A stretch of 36,484 nt of DNA from an uncultured Candidatus Peribacteria bacterium (GTDB taxonomy: Bacteria > Patescibacteriota > Gracilibacteria > UBA1369 > UBA12470), in the NCBI GenBank assembly GCA_964603905.1, contig CAZRWH010000004.1, positions 25,032 to 61,515 of the forward strand. Reading direction: 5' to 3'. The first letter of the stretch is position 1; each line of letters begins with the position of its first letter. Below the pieces are notes generated by a model. The model was not told the DNA's origin and made no database searches. It saw only the letters and a list, made by a program, of their open reading frames with translations. Made by a program: the position numbers and the translations under genes. Shown in pieces: positions 1,424 through 35,186 of this stretch.

Positions 1424-1529
1424 TGCGCGAAGCGCACCACAAACTTGCGACTTGTGACTAAAATTAAAAACGTTTTCGCGTCAGCAAAAACACCATGACT
1501 ACAACTACCACTACTCGCTACCACTACCT
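1424..1529 (+). repeat. Dispersed leader element, copy A (GCGC mini-hairpin, ATTAAAAA, GTTT..AAAC hairpin, CCATGACTAC, ACT-rich tract)
   Basis: attaaaaacgttttcgcgtcagcaaaaacaccatgactac aligns with attaaaaatacgtttcgcaacgcgaaaccccatgactac (from 20671) and tgtttctgcccaggcagaaacaccatgactac (from 20746). Confidence 0.75.
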
Positions 1530-3768: not shown

Positions 3769-4853
3769 ATGCGAGGCTACTTGAAAAAGCTGTTGGCATC
3801 GGCCAATATACCCTGAATTTATACAAGCATATGGCAGAAGACCATCCAGAAGATGAGTTTGTTTTGGTGACTCGGAAGAATGTAAAAGTTGATCTTCCGA
3901 ACAACGTTTCAATCAAAGTTATTCCAGAGAAAAAATGGATACCATTTGCTAGTCTCAAAAAAGGCTATTGGGAACAAATTCAAGTGCCAAAATTTTTCAA
4001 AAAAGAAAAGCTCGACGTAATTCATTACACATATCCAGCGAGCCCATTGAAAAAACTCAAGACCCCATCAACAGTCACAGTTCACGATACGATTCCTTGG
4101 GACGACAAAAGATATACGAAATCTTTTAGGTCGAAAATTTATTTTTGGTTAACAAAAAGATCTCTAAAAAAAGAAAAGACGATAATAGCGGTTTCCGAAA
4201 CCTCAAAACGAGACCTACTAAACTTGATACATGGAGACCCAAAAAGAGTTCACGTGACATATGAGGCGGCATCAGAGAGCTTCGCTCAGAATGTAGAATG
4301 TAGAATGAAGAATGAAGAATATCTGATATATGTCGGTGGGTATGATGTAAGGAAAAACGTACCACAGTTGATTGAAATTTTCGAAAAAATATCGCCAGAA
4401 TTCCTAAACTTGAAATTGCTACTTGTATCAGGGGAAGGGTTCTTGCAAAAAAACGTCAAAAATAGTAATATCAATATACTCACAACAGGGTTCGTAGAAG
4501 AACAAGAGCTAGCGAAATTATACCGAGGCGCCAAAGCGTTCATTAACATCTCCGAAAAAGAAGGATTCAATCTCCCTATTTTGGAAGCAGCTTACTCAGA
4601 AACGCCGATACTTACATCTGACATACCTTTGCACAGGGAGCTTTACGATCCACATGTGTTGTTTTTGCCTCTCCAAGATCAAGAGAAGGCGGCTACACTG
4701 GTCAGTAATTTTATAAAAAATCCAAAAATCCAAAAAAAGCTCCGCGAGGAGACGAAAAAATTACGCGAAAAATACACCTGGGAGGAAGCGGCCAAAAAAA
4801 CTTACGAGATCCTAACCACTCTCAAATGCTCTGGATCATCGCCACACATTTAG
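3753..4853 (+). CDS. Glycosyltransferase family 4 (GT-B)
   Basis: GIGQY, VTVHD, IAVSETSK, YVGGYDVRKN, EGFNLPILEA, TSDIP. Confidence 0.9.
   Translation: MRIGVNARLLEKAVGIGQYTLNLYKHMAEDHPEDEFVLVTRKNVKVDLPNNVSIKVIPEKKWIPFASLKKGYWEQIQVPKFFKKEKLDVIHYTYPASPLKKLKTPSTVTVHDTIPWDDKRYTKSFRSKIYFWLTKRSLKKEKTIIAVSETSKRDLLNLIHGDPKRVHVTYEAASESFAQNVECRMKNEEYLIYVGGYDVRKNVPQLIEIFEKISPEFLNLKLLLVSGEGFLQKNVKNSNINILTTGFVEEQELAKLYRGAKAFINISEKEGFNLPILEAAYSETPILTSDIPLHRELYDPHVLFLPLQDQEKAATLVSNFIKNPKIQKKLREETKKLREKYTWEEAAKKTYEILTTLKCSGSSPHI
4288..4322 (+). repeat. Heptamer tandem array inside the GT4 gene
   Basis: AGAATGT AGAATGT AGAATGA AGAATGA AGAATAT, preceded by the GAGC-TTC-GCTC palindrome (4277-4287). Confidence 0.85.
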
Positions 4854-17126: not shown

Positions 17127-17168
17127 CACTAACCACTGTCCACTGTTCACTGTCCACTAACCACTATC
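17127..17168. repeat. Heptamer tandem array
   Basis: CACTAAC CACTGTC CACTGTT CACTGTC CACTAAC CACTATC, spanning the stop codon of 17147..18487. Confidence 0.85.
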
Positions 17169-20657: not shown

Positions 20658-20807
20658 GCGCTTAGCGCAGATTAAAAATACGTTTCGCAACGCGAAACCC
20701 CATGACTACCAGGGCGGCCAAAGGCCAGCCCCCAAATATAAATTCTGTTTCTGCCCAGGCAGAAACACCATGACTACTACAACTACTCACTACAACTACC
20801 TATACCT
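20658..20807 (+). repeat. Dispersed leader element, tandem copies B1 and B2
   Basis: GCGC-TTA-GCGC; GTTTCGC-AAC-GCGAAAC + CCCATGACTAC; GGGCGGCC-AAA-GGCCAGCCC; TGTTTCTGC-CCAG-GCAGAAACA + CCATGACTAC + G-free tract up to CCT-ATG. Confidence 0.75.
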
Positions 20808-22910
20808 ATGCGCCCACGCACAATCAAAATGCCAGAGGCCTCGATAAAAGAGGGGGGAACCCCTCAAAGTTCGCCGTATGTGCTTAAGATTGAGCGGAAA
20901 ACAGGGGTTGCTCCAAAGAAGTGTGTCGACATAGTTCTGCCAGAGAAAAAACGCGCAAAAAAAATCAAAATGCCTAAGCGAGAAAACCTTTTTGCGAAGA
21001 GTGAAGTTCTCAGGATGGCAACAATCGCAACTCTTGTGGTTATGATTTTGAATATGGGACAGATGTATTTCAAAGCAGGAGAGACAAAGGACGCGATTTT
21101 TGATGCGGCATATGCAGGAGTTGATCAGCTGATGGAGATCGATACGGACGACATGGAAGGAGCAAACGAAGCTTTTCAGATTGCAAATTATCAATTTGAA
21201 ATGGCTGAAAACATGCTTTGGTATCTAAACGACTCTGGGAATATCGAAGGAGCAAATAAGTACATAAAAACGGCCGACGGGATCCTGAATGCAGCTGTAG
21301 CAATTACAACAGCAGGAGAACTTTTTGCTGAGTTTGTTGTTAACACAACAGAACTTAGCGAAGGGTTGTTTACAGATAACACAGAAGGGGTGAAGCCTTC
21401 TTTGACAGAGGCTTTGAAAGCAGGATATTCAGAATATTTGGAGCCTGCGTATGATGAGCTGGTTTTGGCGCAAACACACTTAGATAATGTAGATGTTACG
21501 GTCCTGCCAGCTGCGTATGTTAAGCAGGTTGCGCTTGCTCAAGAACAGCTGAAGGTGGTTAACAATATGCTGGGGAAGGTGTCAGAAAACTTCAACGCAA
21601 TCATTAAATTGTTAGGAGATGAATTGCCGCAGAAATATATGATCCTATTTGAAAACAACAGTGAATTAAGACCTGGTGGAGGATTCATGGGAAGCTTTTT
21701 GTTGGTTGATATCAACGACGGATACATAGACTCAATGGAGTTCTCAGATATTTATGAATGGGATGGCGCATTTACTGAATTTATTGAGCCACCAGTAAAA
21801 GAAATTGAATATCTGACATGTTGTTGGGGACTTAGGGATGCGAATTATTCGCCAGATTTTGTTGTTTCATCGGAGGCGGTAAGATGGCTTTTTGAAAAAG
21901 AAAACGGTCCATCCGTAGACCACGTAATCATGGTGGACCTGAGTTTGGTTTCAGACATAATTAATAAAATTGGTCCGCTTGAGTCGCCAAGTCTTGAAGG
22001 GCAATTAACAGGAGAGAATTTCGAGCTGATTTTGAGCTACATCGTTGAGTCAAAATTGATGGGAGAGACCAGCCCGAAATCAATTGTCGAAGAAATTGTA
22101 CCGATTTTCAAAGAAGAAATTTTGAAGCCTCAAAACCTGCTTAGCGTCGCAGGGGCTTTCATGCGAGGAGCCGAGGGGAAGCACTTTGCTGCTTACAGCG
22201 TTGATGAAGAAATGCAAAACTTTTGGAGGAGTTGGAATTTGGATGGTGAGCTTTATAGGCCTGGAGAGAATGAAGACTATTTGCTAGTCACTGTTAGCGG
22301 TATTGGTGGAAACAAAACGGATCGATACGTGGAGCAAGAAATCCTTCACCAAACACTGATATCTCGTGAGGGCGAATTAATGAATAAGTTGACGATTACT
22401 CGCGAGCACACTTGGACAGAAGAGGTGAGAACATGGCAAATGGATCAATTAAATTTGTTTGGTTTTGAGACGGTCTCAGAAACTGTTCAAGATATACTGG
22501 GGCAAGGAGACAACGTTGCAGGTATTCGGGTTTATGTGCCAAATGGGTCTAGCATTATTGATACAGATGGAATCTTTGAGCATATACCGGAAGTTCTTTA
22601 TGACGAGCAACTTGAGATGGAATATTTCTATTTCGTAGTAAGGACAAAACCAGGTGAAACAACAGAAATTCAATTAACATACGATCTGCCTTTTAATCTC
22701 ACTTTTGAGCCTGCAGACGACTACTTCTTGTTTGTTGAAAAACAGCCTGGACTGGACAACACAGTCTTCACGAAAGAAATAATAGCGCCAGCAATAAACA
22801 ATCATGCTCTTTATCCAAAAGGGGAATTCCAAAAGGACCAAGATTTAAATTACACACTGACTCTAGACTTGGATAAGCCAATTCATCTAGGAGGAGTTTT
22901 TACTAACTAA
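20808..22910 (+). CDS. DUF4012-domain membrane-anchored protein
   Basis: YMILFENNSELRPGGGFMGSF, LRDANYSPDF, GGNKTDRY, VEKQPG; N-terminal TM. Confidence 0.8.
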   Translation: MRPRTIKMPEASIKEGGTPQSSPYVLKIERKTGVAPKKCVDIVLPEKKRAKKIKMPKRENLFAKSEVLRMATIATLVVMILNMGQMYFKAGETKDAIFDAAYAGVDQLMEIDTDDMEGANEAFQIANYQFEMAENMLWYLNDSGNIEGANKYIKTADGILNAAVAITTAGELFAEFVVNTTELSEGLFTDNTEGVKPSLTEALKAGYSEYLEPAYDELVLAQTHLDNVDVTVLPAAYVKQVALAQEQLKVVNNMLGKVSENFNAIIKLLGDELPQKYMILFENNSELRPGGGFMGSFLLVDINDGYIDSMEFSDIYEWDGAFTEFIEPPVKEIEYLTCCWGLRDANYSPDFVVSSEAVRWLFEKENGPSVDHVIMVDLSLVSDIINKIGPLESPSLEGQLTGENFELILSYIVESKLMGETSPKSIVEEIVPIFKEEILKPQNLLSVAGAFMRGAEGKHFAAYSVDEEMQNFWRSWNLDGELYRPGENEDYLLVTVSGIGGNKTDRYVEQEILHQTLISREGELMNKLTITREHTWTEEVRTWQMDQLNLFGFETVSETVQDILGQGDNVAGIRVYVPNGSSIIDTDGIFEHIPEVLYDEQLEMEYFYFVVRTKPGETTEIQLTYDLPFNLTFEPADDYFLFVEKQPGLDNTVFTKEIIAPAINNHALYPKGEFQKDQDLNYTLTLDLDKPIHLGGVFTN

Positions 22911-28326: not shown

Positions 28327-28368
28327 TCTATAATCTGTAATCTGTCATCTGTGATCTGTCATCTGTGA
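28327..28368. repeat. Heptamer tandem array
   Basis: TCTATAA TCTGTAA TCTGTCA TCTGTGA TCTGTCA TCTGTGA, immediately after the SOR stop codon. Confidence 0.85.
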
Positions 28369-28369
28369 T

Positions 28370-28798
28370 CTAACTAGACTCCCAAACCCCATGCAGATTG
28401 CAGTAGGCAAGAGCATAAAGATCATCCGAATACTCAACTCCTTCAAAGAATGCAACAGGCTGATCTCCAGCTTTGAGTGTGATTTTTTTGATAGGAGAAG
28501 CTCCATTGTCTCCATAAAGTTCAACTGTTGTAATTGAGTGAGCATCTTCCATCGGATGAGGGATCGATCCAACTTTTACATTAACGCCACCGTCAGTAGC
28601 TTCAATAACGGGGACATGTTTCTCTTGCGCTTCACCACCAGTGAACTCTTCACCAAGATGATGGACAACTTCGAACTCATTTTTCCCAACTTTACAAAGT
28701 GGGCATTTGTAATCATCTGGCTGATCTTCGAATGAAGTTCCGTCGTTTTTTGCTGGGTCGTAGATCCAGGCGCAAACTTTACATCTATGTTTGTGCAT
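28370..28798 (-). CDS. Rubredoxin-superoxide reductase fusion
   Basis: Rubredoxin [14 protein letters not shown]; SOR active site [18 protein letters not shown]. Confidence 0.9.
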
Positions 28799-31430: not shown

Positions 31431-31458
31431 CACTTACTTCTCACTACTCATTACTCAC
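31431..31458. repeat. Heptamer array in the leader of the LysM/M23 gene
   Basis: CACTTAC TTCTCAC TACTCAT TACTCAC. Confidence 0.55.
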
Positions 31459-31464
31459 TGATAA

Positions 31465-33531: not shown

Positions 33532-33590
33532 AGCCTGCCCGCAGGGCTCCAATACTACAACCACCACTACAACTACTAACTACTTAAACT
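33532..33590 (+). repeat. Degenerate leader element, copy C (hairpin + CCAATACTAC + G-free ACT/AAC tract)
   Basis: AGCCTGC-CC-GCAGGGCT then ccaatactacaaccaccactacaactactaactacttaaact-ATG of purH. Confidence 0.55.
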
Positions 33591-35186
33591 ATGAACCCCG
33601 AAAGTACCGAAGGAATTCTACCAATAAAAAGAGCACTCATCTCAGTTTCCGATAAAACGGGAATCGTCGAACTAGCCCAAGCTTTACAAGAGCACGGGAC
33701 GGAAATACTGTCGACAGGCGGAACTGCAAAAGTACTTAAAGAGGCAGGAGTCGAAGTAAGAGAGGTTTCAGAATACGCAGGATCACCTGAAATCATGGAA
33801 GGCCGCGTAAAAACTTTACACCCAAAAATTCACGGAGGACTACTTGCAGTACGGGAGTCAAAAGAGCACATGCAACAAGCAGAAGAGAACGGCATCGGTA
33901 TGATCGATATGGTTGTGATTAACCTTTATCCTTTTCAAAAAACAATAGCGCAGGAAGGAGTTACAGAAGAAGAGGCGATCGAGCAAATAGATATCGGAGG
34001 GCCATCAATGCTTAGAAGCGCAGCAAAAAATTTCAAATATGTTGCGTCAGTCACAGCAATCAAAGATTACCCAATGATAATCGACTCCATCAAAACACAC
34101 GGTGGAATCGGATTTGAAATGAGACGAACTTTGGCTTCAAAAGTTTTTGCAAAAACTTCTTACTACGACCAAAAAATCGCAGAGTACATGAAGAGCAAAG
34201 GCGGAGAAGTGGAACTTCTAGACCTACATTACGAAAAAGTACAAAAGCTTCGATACGGAGAAAACCCTCACCAAAAAGCGGCTTTCTTCCGAGACCCACA
34301 CAATCACTACCCAAACGTAACAAACGCCAAGAAACTTCAGGGAAAAGAGCTGTCTTTTAACAATATAGTTGATGCAGACGGAGCTCTTGAGCTGGTAAAA
34401 GATTTCGACCGCCCAACAGCTGCCGTAATCAAACACACAAACCCTTGTGGAGTTGCATCTGCCGATACTATGACAACAGCACTAATTAAGGCTCACCAGG
34501 TTGATCCGATGTCAGCATTTGGATGTGTAATTGCAATGAACCGTGAATGTACAAAAGAGATTGCTCAATACGTAAAAGAGAATAAACTTTTTGTTGAGAT
34601 GATTATTGCGCCTGCGTTCGCAGCTGAAGCGCTTGAAATTTTCTCAAAAAGAAAGAACCTTCGACTGCTAGAAACTGGAAAGCTAAGGCTAAATCCAATA
34701 CAGCGTTCTATCAAAACTGTCTCAGGAGGAATCCTAGTTCAAAATGCAGATCAATACGTGGTAACAGAAGAAGATCTCAAGACGGTCACAAAAAAAGCTC
34801 CAACAAGCGAAGAAATAAACGCGATGCTTTTCGCTCGAAACGTTGTAAAACACGTCAAATCAAATTCAGTTGTATTCGCAAAAGTTATAAAAGATGAAGA
34901 AACAGGCGAAATGGTTGAGGTAACAACCGGTATCGGTGCAGGACAAATGTCGAGGGTCGATGCGGTCCATATAGCAACTTACAAAGGCGGCGAAAACATC
35001 AAAGGATCGGTCATGGCTTCAGACGCATTCTTCCCATTCCCTGACGGGGTTGAAGAAGCAAGCAAGGCAGGTGTGACAGCAGTTATTCAACCTGGAGGAT
35101 CAATTCGTGATGAAGAGGTCTTCAAGAGGGCAGACGAGCTGGAGATTTCGATGGTCACTACTGGGATTAGAAGCTTTAAACATTGA
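33591..35186 (+). CDS. purH: Bifunctional AICAR transformylase/IMP cyclohydrolase
   Basis: RALISVSDKTG, STGGT, GRVKTLHPKIHGG, IDIGGPSM, LRYGENPHQ, KHTNPCG, GAGQMSRVD, ASDAFFPF. Confidence 0.97.
   Translation: MNPESTEGILPIKRALISVSDKTGIVELAQALQEHGTEILSTGGTAKVLKEAGVEVREVSEYAGSPEIMEGRVKTLHPKIHGGLLAVRESKEHMQQAEENGIGMIDMVVINLYPFQKTIAQEGVTEEEAIEQIDIGGPSMLRSAAKNFKYVASVTAIKDYPMIIDSIKTHGGIGFEMRRTLASKVFAKTSYYDQKIAEYMKSKGGEVELLDLHYEKVQKLRYGENPHQKAAFFRDPHNHYPNVTNAKKLQGKELSFNNIVDADGALELVKDFDRPTAAVIKHTNPCGVASADTMTTALIKAHQVDPMSAFGCVIAMNRECTKEIAQYVKENKLFVEMIIAPAFAAEALEIFSKRKNLRLLETGKLRLNPIQRSIKTVSGGILVQNADQYVVTEEDLKTVTKKAPTSEEINAMLFARNVVKHVKSNSVVFAKVIKDEETGEMVEVTTGIGAGQMSRVDAVHIATYKGGENIKGSVMASDAFFPFPDGVEEASKAGVTAVIQPGGSIRDEEVFKRADELEISMVTTGIRSFKH

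Follow-up and report, generated by a model that had tools for sequence, protein, structure and literature searches.

A dispersed hairpin and G-free tract before start codons in a Candidatus Peribacteria genome: a candidate leader for initiation without Shine-Dalgarno sites

The stretch of DNA analysed here, which we call the window, comprises 36,484 nt of one contig (CAZRWH010000004.1) of an uncultured Candidatus Peribacteria bacterium. Our subject is a repeated element in it, made up of a short hairpin and a G-poor tract, that abuts the start codons of ftsW, of a gene for a DUF4012 protein and of purH. There are three full copies in the window, one before each of these genes, and a fourth that is truncated. 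The source genome (G000) is a 1.31-Mb assembly in 67 contigs, 94% complete and with 41% G+C, and the other genomes of its family are referred to as G001 to G007. The features that concern us are as follows.

1425-1463, + strand: upstream sister module, with mini-hairpin GCGCGAAGCGC (1425-1435), ACCA (1436-1439) and a tract of 7-nt period, CAAACTTGCGACTTGTGACTAAAA
1463-1471, + strand: A-rich box ATTAAAAAC, directly 5' of hairpin A
1472-1491, + strand: hairpin A, GTTTTCGC-GTCA-GCAAAAAC, followed by ACCA (1492-1495)
1496-1529, + strand: tract of copy A, a degenerate (ACTACN)n reaching the ftsW ATG at 1530
1530-2762, + strand: ftsW (FTSW_RODA_SPOVE, Pfam E = 1.3e-81), led by copy A
20658-20709, + strand: copy B1, truncated, with mini-hairpin GCGCTTAGCGC, ATTAAAAATAC, hairpin (20682-20698), CCCA and TGACTAC
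20712-20746, + strand: GC-rich hairpin GGGCGGCCAAAGGCCAGCCCCC and A/T box AAATATAAATTCT, between B1 and B2
20747-20807, + strand: copy B2, with hairpin GTTTCTGC-CCAG-GCAGAAAC (20747-20766), ACCA and tract (20771-20807), ATG at 20808
20808-22910, + strand: DUF4012 gene (Pfam PF13196, E = 3.1e-21), led by copy B2
33532-33590, + strand: purH copy, with weak hairpin AGCCTGCCCGCAGGGCT (33532-33548), TCCA and G-free tract (33552-33590), ATG at 33591
33591-35186, + strand: purH (AICARFT/IMPCHase, Pfam E = 1.7e-109), led by the purH copy

A repeated hairpin and tract before ftsW, before the DUF4012 gene (two copies) and before purH had been reported in a sequence-only reading of the window, and both the coordinates and a covariance model for hairpin plus tract bear this out. 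Copy A is matched by the model at 1472-1528 (61.2 bits). Its stem has one C.A mismatch on the + strand, which is G.U on the - strand, and its tract, predicted by folding to be unpaired, has two G residues (1497 and 1517), the final 12 nt ahead of the ATG being G-free. Tandem Repeats Finder (TRF) describes the tract at 1498-1528 as 5.0 copies of the unit ACTACC with period 6, 80% matches and a score of 39; scores for these tracts (32-39) fall under the threshold of 50 that is usually applied. The hairpin of copy B1 is GTTTCGC-AAC-GCGAAAC, its tract is broken off after TGACTAC and the model match is partial (20682-20711, model positions 1-32). Copy B2 (51.7 bits) has a single G in its tract, at 20772 in the conserved TGAC word, followed by a 35-nt G-free run before the ATG, and its region folds with z = -6.1. 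The purH copy (33533-33584, 38.7 bits) folds weakly (z = 0.32) and a 44-nt G-free run precedes its ATG. The word CCATGACTAC occurs exactly at 1493, 20700 and 20768, and at 12 sites in the whole genome; with at most one mismatch it is found at 6 sites of the window, against 1.06 +/- 1.11 per shuffle (0 of 100 shuffles reach 6).

A GCGC-NNA-GCGCA mini-hairpin had also been noted before copy A. It is indeed present at 1425-1435, and is not simply an appendage of copy A but itself the head of a module, with ACCA and a 7-nt-period tract following at 1436-1463. This plan of hairpin, NCCA and short-period tract is seen again across the genome, and the ftsW locus is two tandem modules built on the one plan. 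The arrangement of GC-rich hairpin and ATATAAATTCC seen between B1 and B2 is likewise found 5' of several other copies. At the ftsW locus the N-terminus of the protein (MRK.Y) is common to relatives, and the DNA upstream of their genes is unrelated. In predicted folds pairing is possible between the upstream mini-hairpin, by its GCGC, and GCGC(A) just past the AUG in copies A (1424-1428 with 1532-1536) and B2 (20666-20669 with 20809-20812), and such pairing would close the whole leader into a loop; both genes begin ATGCGC, and with n = 2 this may be chance.

With regard to the rest of the genome, nhmmer with a profile made from 10 copies finds 78 copies at a cut-off of E<1e-3, and the covariance model, seeded with 10 copies of equal geometry, gives 107 matches at E<=0.01. 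The copies were realigned to this model, MAFFT alignments not being structure-aware in the hairpin. Over the 78 copies the joint between hairpin and tract has the consensus WCCA(W)(G/A/T)ACTAC, and from there a G-free, degenerate (ACTACN)n of about 35 nt reaches the start codon. The word CCATGACTAC is thus not invariant, as had been supposed, its ATG being kept in 16 of the 78.

The placing of the copies is related to gene boundaries. Judged by the longest adjoining open reading frame (ORF), 53 of the 78 copies are sense and upstream, 21 are antisense and 4 have no ORF. Judged by both neighbouring genes, 40 lie between tandem genes that point the same way as the copy and 14 between tandem genes that point the other way, 12 are in divergent gaps, 7 in convergent gaps and 5 at contig ends, so that among the 73 classifiable copies 52 face a start and 21 a stop. 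An orientation-blind repeat would give 1:1 in the tandem gaps, where we find 40 to 14. The orientation is therefore biased toward starts, but the bias is not strict. The junction with the start is tight. In 45 of the 78 copies an ORF of at least 60 aa begins no more than 12 nt past the tract (38 with ATG, 5 with GTG and 2 with TTG), the start codon lying -1 to 8 nt from the last CTA, and 21 of the 45 share an A between the two, the final base of the terminal CTA being also the first of the start codon. The antisense copies have a corresponding relation to stops: in 18 of the 21 the convergent gene has its stop codon 5-31 nt inside the G-free stretch. This stop is a TAG, usually the first one, that the tract provides when read in reverse complement, and the hairpin comes after it. 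Read in this way, inverted copies offer a TAG stop in each of the three frames, and also a terminator-like hairpin. Whichever way a copy points, its tract end adjoins the gene boundary and its hairpin end does not.

Pfam matches were obtained for 35 of 43 led genes, and there is no common pathway among them. They include genes for FtsW, PurH, two Lgt proteins, Def, S18, L28, L6, L15 and EF-G, and also for NusA, DnaB, UvrA, GlmS, SHMT and the V-ATPase subunits D and F. In the S10-spc-alpha operons (G000:C1:47000-68000, - strand) almost every junction of 20-60 nt is a G-free tract of A, C and T made of short repeated words and often ending CTAA(N)ATG. Tracts of the ACTAC type stand ahead of rpsC, rplF and rplO, and there is a copy ahead of fusA. 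Since rplF and rplO lie as cistrons inside the spc operon, and cistrons within conserved operons need a translation start and not a promoter, these cases favour a role in translation over one in transcription.

The tracts also have to be seen against the general character of start regions in this genome, for which gene calls were crude (longest ORFs, first start codon). Words resembling a Shine-Dalgarno (SD) site are found upstream of 60 of 986 genes, compared with 11.7% of random sites. G makes up 10.5-11.8% of the bases at -30 to -1, and about 20% both past stop codons and genome-wide. The frequency of ATG, GTG and TTG is halved near starts (0.0235, against 0.0518 further upstream). A G-free run of at least 20 nt lies directly before the start in 276 of 1104 genes, as against 1.3% of random positions, and the same test for the other bases gives 44 genes for C-free runs, 3 for T-free and none for A-free. 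ACTAC words are present in only 38 of the 276 G-free runs.

SD sites are not used by this genome. The 3' end of its 16S rRNA is canonical (...ACCTCCTTTCT) and CCUCC is kept, but a tract that lacks G can have no purine-rich complement of CCUCC at 4-13 nt upstream. An alternative pairing of the tract with the 16S 3' end was dropped, as the canonical tail has no complement of the tract. In the source genome that end (G000:C27:12670-12698) has GGATGGAATACCTCCTTTCT in place of the usual GGATCACCTCCTT, CCTCC being kept. Among ribosomal proteins that bear on initiation, there is an S1-like gene with several S1 domains at C22:21717-22763, near the end of the contig, scoring 233 bits against an rpsA cut-off of 577, and no bS21 gene (PF01165) was found in the 94%-complete G000. 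This agrees with a report that Peregrinibacteria often have no bS21 (PMC9297842).

The hairpin is of 7-9 bp, GTTTYGC...GCRAAAC, and is followed by WCCA. In 43 copies aligned to the covariance model 97.0% of 301 cells are paired, against 75.2 +/- 1.6% in shuffles, none of 500 of which reaches the observed value, and when the partners are slid pairing is at most 58%; the alignment was fitted to the same structure and the copies are related repeats, which limits what these figures can say. Changes on both sides are seen in 7 of 8 pairs. Stems that keep pairing while the sequence changes had been claimed from the few copies in the window, and with the exception of the C.A mismatch of copy A on the + strand the claim stands, with covariation now seen in a much larger set of copies. 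G.U pairs account for only 1 of the 301 cells, and a strand test by wobble pairs in two genomes (9 G.U forward, 14 reverse) shows no strand preference, so that the functional hairpin may be RNA of one strand or a DNA palindrome.

Hairpin and WCCA are shared by the family. The pattern GTTTYGC-N3-6-GCRAAAC-WCCA, for which a reversed-pattern control gave 0 everywhere, is present 26 times in G000 and in all seven of the other family genomes searched (82 in G001, 44 in G002, 20 in G003, 2 in G004, 12 in G005, 3 in G006 and 14 in G007). In other families of the order it was found in 5 of 113 genomes, with 1-3 copies in each. The 5' flank is also distinctive: over 60 hairpin modules of the genome the six bases from -9 to -4 are rich in A (0.78 at -6), and C stands at -1 in 0.68 of the modules. 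A specific recognition partner is suggested by conservation within the one family yet across its genera, and by the constant WCCA and 5' box. No Rfam family matches at gathering thresholds anywhere in the window, nor at E<=1 in 1380-1560, in keeping with the earlier remark that the element was not recognised as a known RNA family. One stretch of the - strand, 20723-20768, does resemble whalefall-1, but this sole resemblance was set aside: its 17 bits fall short of the gathering score (37), and RF01762 has no match at E<=0.01 in any of the 8 family genomes.

Hairpin and tract are however not always found together. The hairpin with WCCA also stands ahead of quite unlike short-period tracts (CACTGTY, CTGCTSC, ATCTGTA, TCGACTS and others), and the ACTAC tract is found with a second hairpin type, YTGCYCGAAGRGC, or with none. 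The element is thus two modules that also occur apart and not one structured RNA family. Leaders of hairpin and C/A/T tract are present at lgt and rplF in both G000 and G003, and at fusA in both G000 and G001. In G001, which is of another genus, the ribosomal-protein junctions that have G-free tracts in G000 hold arrays of GCCTAAA or GCCTAAC. The tract is younger or faster-changing than the hairpin, as seen in the counts given below for the 16-mer CTACAACTACCACTAC.

The explanation that we favour, and hold with moderate confidence, is that we are dealing with a lineage-specific leader for SD-independent initiation, one that cannot fold and has no start codons, and that spreads and turns over in the manner of mosaic intergenic repeats. 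The tract is most likely the stand-in of this organism for a ribosome-binding site. On this model a G-free tract, having no stable structure, no AUG, GUG or UUG and no SD-like word, would be a place on which a 30S subunit with the S1-like protein, or a ribosome that has just terminated upstream, could load, and the loaded ribosome would take the first start codon, at the end of the tract or a few bases past it. The tract would be transcribed as a 5' leader and would promote initiation. Hairpin and WCCA would be accessory, most likely marking or protecting the 5' edge of the initiation zone, as a 5'-end stabiliser or a processing signal; we call the hairpin accessory because it is not kept at orthologous junctions and many tracts are without it. 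For its role we rank 5'-edge stabiliser or processing signal first, then RNase P site, then promoter, then terminator of the other strand. The family behaves as mosaic repeat DNA: it has multiplied in G000, its hairpins and tracts recombine and its words change between genera. Repeat words that suit a leader would have been tolerated, and then retained, before start codons, so that in our view function and repeat dynamics are compatible.

The suggestion of an SD-independent initiation module had already been made in the sequence-only reading, and it gains from the bias of 52 to 21 toward starts, the tight start junction, the presence at internal cistrons of ribosomal operons and the scarcity of SD sites, combined with G-free leaders, across the genome. 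Several observations weigh against it. The 21 of 78 copies that aim at the 3' end of a gene are placed where a leader is useless, and when hairpin modules of all tract types are taken the bias is weaker (27 toward starts, 20 toward stops). Orthologous junctions do not retain the hairpin, which rpsK and rpsD have in G001 and lack in G000. As the words differ by genus and the word of G001 has one G in 7, neither an exact sequence nor strict freedom from G is required. The exact 16-mer CTACAACTACCACTAC has 37 occurrences in G000, against 3 and 2 in two other genera and none in 38 more genomes, and this looks like recent spread and not old selection. The crude calling of the first start will have inflated the rate at which G-free runs end exactly at the called start. 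Among public sequencing runs searched for this DNA none with RNA was listed, and the presence of the tract in mRNA is assumed.

The closest published parallel is that of the TAACTGA direct repeats of marine Beggiatoaceae, which lie just upstream of start codons and for which S1 has been proposed as the binder (MacGregor 2015, PMC4679880). As described there, those repeats resemble ours in that SD sites are few in the gaps and the led genes have no shared function, and in occurring within ribosomal-protein operons and ahead of fusA and being specific to a lineage (PMC4679880). They are forward repeats ending a few nt before starts, as do 45 of our 78 copies. The differences are that the unit here is ACTACC or ACTACA with period 6 and not a heptamer, that it forms a conserved sequence of about 35 nt and no pure array, and that it is G-free and usually joined to a family-conserved hairpin and WCCA. 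The host in our case is a bacterium of the candidate phyla radiation (CPR), and in it G-free leaders are a genome-wide rule.

In the case of the SD-independent start regions of Bacteroidia, there is likewise an anti-SD kept in 16S rRNA and unused, low structure and depletion of start trinucleotides (PMC6847099). Initiation is reported there to depend on low structure, and AUG to be depleted around true starts (PMC6847099). A low-structure tract as mechanism thus matches both these results and the proposal made for TAACTGA repeats (PMC6847099, PMC4679880). The Bacteroidia leaders differ in being A-rich and single-copy, with A favoured at -3, -6, -12 and -13, and they are not dispersed hairpin repeats (PMC6847099). 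In Bacteroidia the anti-SD is reported to be hidden with the help of bS21 (PMC7797042), for which, as said, no gene was found in G000. Our literature search turned up no paper on leaders or intergenic repeats in Peregrinibacteria, and in the Peribacteria genome paper the words 'intergenic', 'Shine', 'motif' and 'upstream' are absent. The Gracilibacteria repeat of PMC6851277 is described as a coding repeat and has no bearing on the element. What is already in print, for Beggiatoaceae, is the use of repeat words in place of SD just before starts, and what is new is the conserved G-free ACTAC leader, its tie to a genome-wide G-free rule and the family-conserved hairpin with WCCA.

The omega leader of tobacco mosaic virus (TMV), with which the tract had been compared, and other CA-rich enhancers are G-poor, unstructured leaders rich in CAA or ACA that allow initiation without SD. 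Those are however single viral or synthetic leaders, and the likeness is one of sequence.

How bacteria that ignore SD sites choose their start codons has hardly been studied in CPR bacteria. A genome in which 20 nt or more without G come immediately before the start codon in a quarter of genes is an unusually clean natural design for the question, and in it one conserved G-free version has been copied before dozens of housekeeping genes, including cistrons of the ribosomal operons. If the tract were shown to drive initiation it would be a compact and portable SD-free leader, and this would be a second independent lineage, beside the Beggiatoaceae with TAACTGA, for repeat words as ribosome-binding sites.

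The chief alternative, which we think rather unlikely, is that the element is dispersed repeat DNA, selfish or neutral, that plays no part in translation and is of the kind known as short tandemly repeated repetitive (STRR) sequences, bacterial interspersed mosaic elements (BIME) or miniature inverted-repeat transposable elements (MITE). Such a repeat would spread by slippage, recombination or a mobilising activity and selection would only purge harmful copies, leaving G-poor copies before starts and TAG-bearing copies after stops. The high copy number, the two orientations, the mosaic combinations of hairpin and tract, the degenerate hexamer repeat that makes up the tract and the amplification of one 16-mer in G000 only (37, against 0-3 in 40 relatives) are all as expected of it, as are words that vary by genus and hairpins that come and go at orthologous junctions. 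The near absence of G.U pairs fits a DNA palindrome. Contigs of two DNA runs break at copies (1446/1487, 20729/20737 and 17137-17165), and these contigs gave no usable variation within the tracts. On the other hand the tract side, whichever the orientation, is the one that abuts the gene, tracts of 20-60 nt have been retained at nearly all ribosomal-protein junctions in two genera in spite of a genome of 1.3 Mb, and the depletion of G is confined to the 30 nt ahead of starts, with none after stops.

With regard to known repeat families, repetitive extragenic palindromic (REP) sequences and BIME are small extragenic palindromes present in many copies and both orientations, in mosaic combinations with short motifs. 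Our hairpin palindrome is extragenic and conserved, but it is much shorter and A/T-rich and has a polar tract attached. Where REP palindromes, which are imperfect, have a conserved GTAG at the foot, a nearby GTAG is seen here in the ACTAC tract family only and belongs to the opposite strand; the other tract families lack it. No RAYT (Y1 transposase, PF01797) was found in G000 (94% complete) or in G001 (99% complete and with 82 hairpin copies), the two copy-rich genomes, and only 3 of 8 family genomes have PF01797 matches; a REP/BIME-RAYT system was dropped on this ground. For MITE ends, no terminal inverted repeats or other complementarity are visible in the alignment of 43 copies, though no formal search for target-site duplications was made. 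With no RAYT in G000 or G001 and no terminal inverted repeats visible, slippage and recombination are the likelier routes of spread. A REP/MITE-like element had been offered earlier as the other choice, and in copy number, orientation, mosaics, turnover and contig breaks the likeness is borne out, while no RAYT was found in the two copy-rich genomes and no inverted ends are visible in the alignment.

The STRR heptamers of heterocystous cyanobacteria and other bacterial heptamers are intergenic tandem repeats of short period, have several families per genome, turn over fast and are not known to have a function. In the ACTAC tract the period is 6 (80% matches, TRF scores of 32-39), and the tract is not a head-to-tail array of 7-nt units; it also differs from STRR in keeping one arrangement of variants over dozens of copies and in being polar to start codons. 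True 7-nt arrays coexist with ACTAC tracts in this genome. In the window there are four 7-nt tandem arrays, at 17127-17168, 28327-28371, 31432-31459 and 4288-4320, with the units CACTATC/CCACTGT, TCTGTAA, ACTCACT and AGAATGA.

For the hairpin there is the possibility, which we consider improbable, that with WCCA it mimics a tRNA acceptor stem, so that RNase P cuts at its 5' foot and punctuates polycistronic RNA; the released mRNA would begin with a protective hairpin and go on with a G-free leader. The stem has 7-9 bp and opens with a G-C pair, and it is followed by A or T and CCA, as in a minihelix stem with NCCA. Where a perfect hairpin has a stem of 7 bp or more, no 4-mer follows it as often as ACCA (39 of 1364 flanks; TCCA 18). 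CCA is encoded in 27 of 28 tRNA genes, and the genome has an RNase P RNA of type A (G000:C21:2798-3186, 177 bits). The 5' flanks are A-rich, with C near the junction, in tRNA genes as well as in hairpins. Bacterial RNase P RNA is reported to cleave small non-tRNA substrates in a manner dependent on RCCA (PMC12710915). However the stems are A/U-rich and short, the motif is limited to one family although RNase P is universal, and the hairpin is also found inverted at 3' ends. An acceptor/T minihelix has 12 bp and is longer than these stems, and the usual base at -1 of tRNAs is U, where the hairpins mostly have C. The tRNAs of this genome have T in 12 cases, A in 9 and C in 5 at that position (n = 26). 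If RNase P did cut there, its hairpins would punctuate the polycistronic RNA of ultra-small bacteria as tRNAs do in mitochondria, and if SD-less ribosomes slid along the G-free leader to the first AUG this would be a scanning-like initiation in bacteria. We would not expect the two together, punctuation by RNase P and scanning-like initiation, to hold. A hairpin derived from tRNA was a separate candidate and was dropped, as none of the 28 tRNA genes begins with GTTTYGC.

More doubtful still is a promoter cassette, with the A/T box upstream of the hairpin serving as a -10 element for transcripts that would begin at the first G of the hairpin or close to it. The box is at a fixed distance (TAYTATNAACC|G in G001, TANNAAATTCC|G or AAAAAC|G in G000), with a junction of pyrimidine then G, and the 12 copies in divergent gaps are where a promoter is needed. 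There is however no -35 signal, information being <=0.28 bit at -45 to -14, and the best-conserved positions are -4 and -1 and not a -10 hexamer. The cassette stands ahead of internal spc-operon cistrons, many tracts have neither hairpin nor box, and the window has no more promoter-like sites than shuffles do (39 vs 40.2 and 33 vs 40.8). The positions of TANNNT ahead of starts show no sharp peak.

It is very improbable that the other strand is the functional one, with hairpin and T-rich tail forming an intrinsic terminator and the GTAGT-rich sequence being a 3' untranslated region or a small RNA that pairs with leaders. On the - strand all three of the hairpins in the window were marked as terminator-like, and in 18 of 21 inverted copies the stop codon lies within the reverse-complement tract with the hairpin after it. 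Against this, at 52 of the 73 classifiable copies no co-directional gene comes to an end, the A/T-rich stems are weak, G001 does not have a T-rich tail on that strand and terminator-like sites in the window barely exceed shuffles (24 vs 19.0 +/- 4.8 and 24 vs 16.2 +/- 4.2). Finally, a leader peptide or attenuator (MTTTTTT...) starting at the ATG in CCATGAC, or an alternative SD, is hardly credible and the attenuator was dropped: the ATG of copies A and B2 does open a short Thr-rich frame, but the ATG is not conserved, the frames end at differing places with no conserved short ORF, and the 16S tail, as given above, offers an alternative SD no complement.

Two minor arrangements may be mentioned. 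At G000:C17:17463-17581 and C27:13147-13222, and at L104 (G002:C21), a tract and its reverse complement flank one hairpin; such gaps could fold into one long stem, and two of the cases are between tRNA genes or between tRNA and rRNA genes. Two composite sequences with an embedded hairpin and ACCA (...TTAGCGAAAGAGTATCAGCAGYGCT... and ...AACGACTAAACGTATATATTAGTGCA...) recur beside tRNA genes, on the opposite strand, at C34:1100-1750, C25:9900-10400, C6:12850-13250, C23:9700-10100 and C2:33850-34200 of G000, and these may be tRNA promoters or small RNAs.

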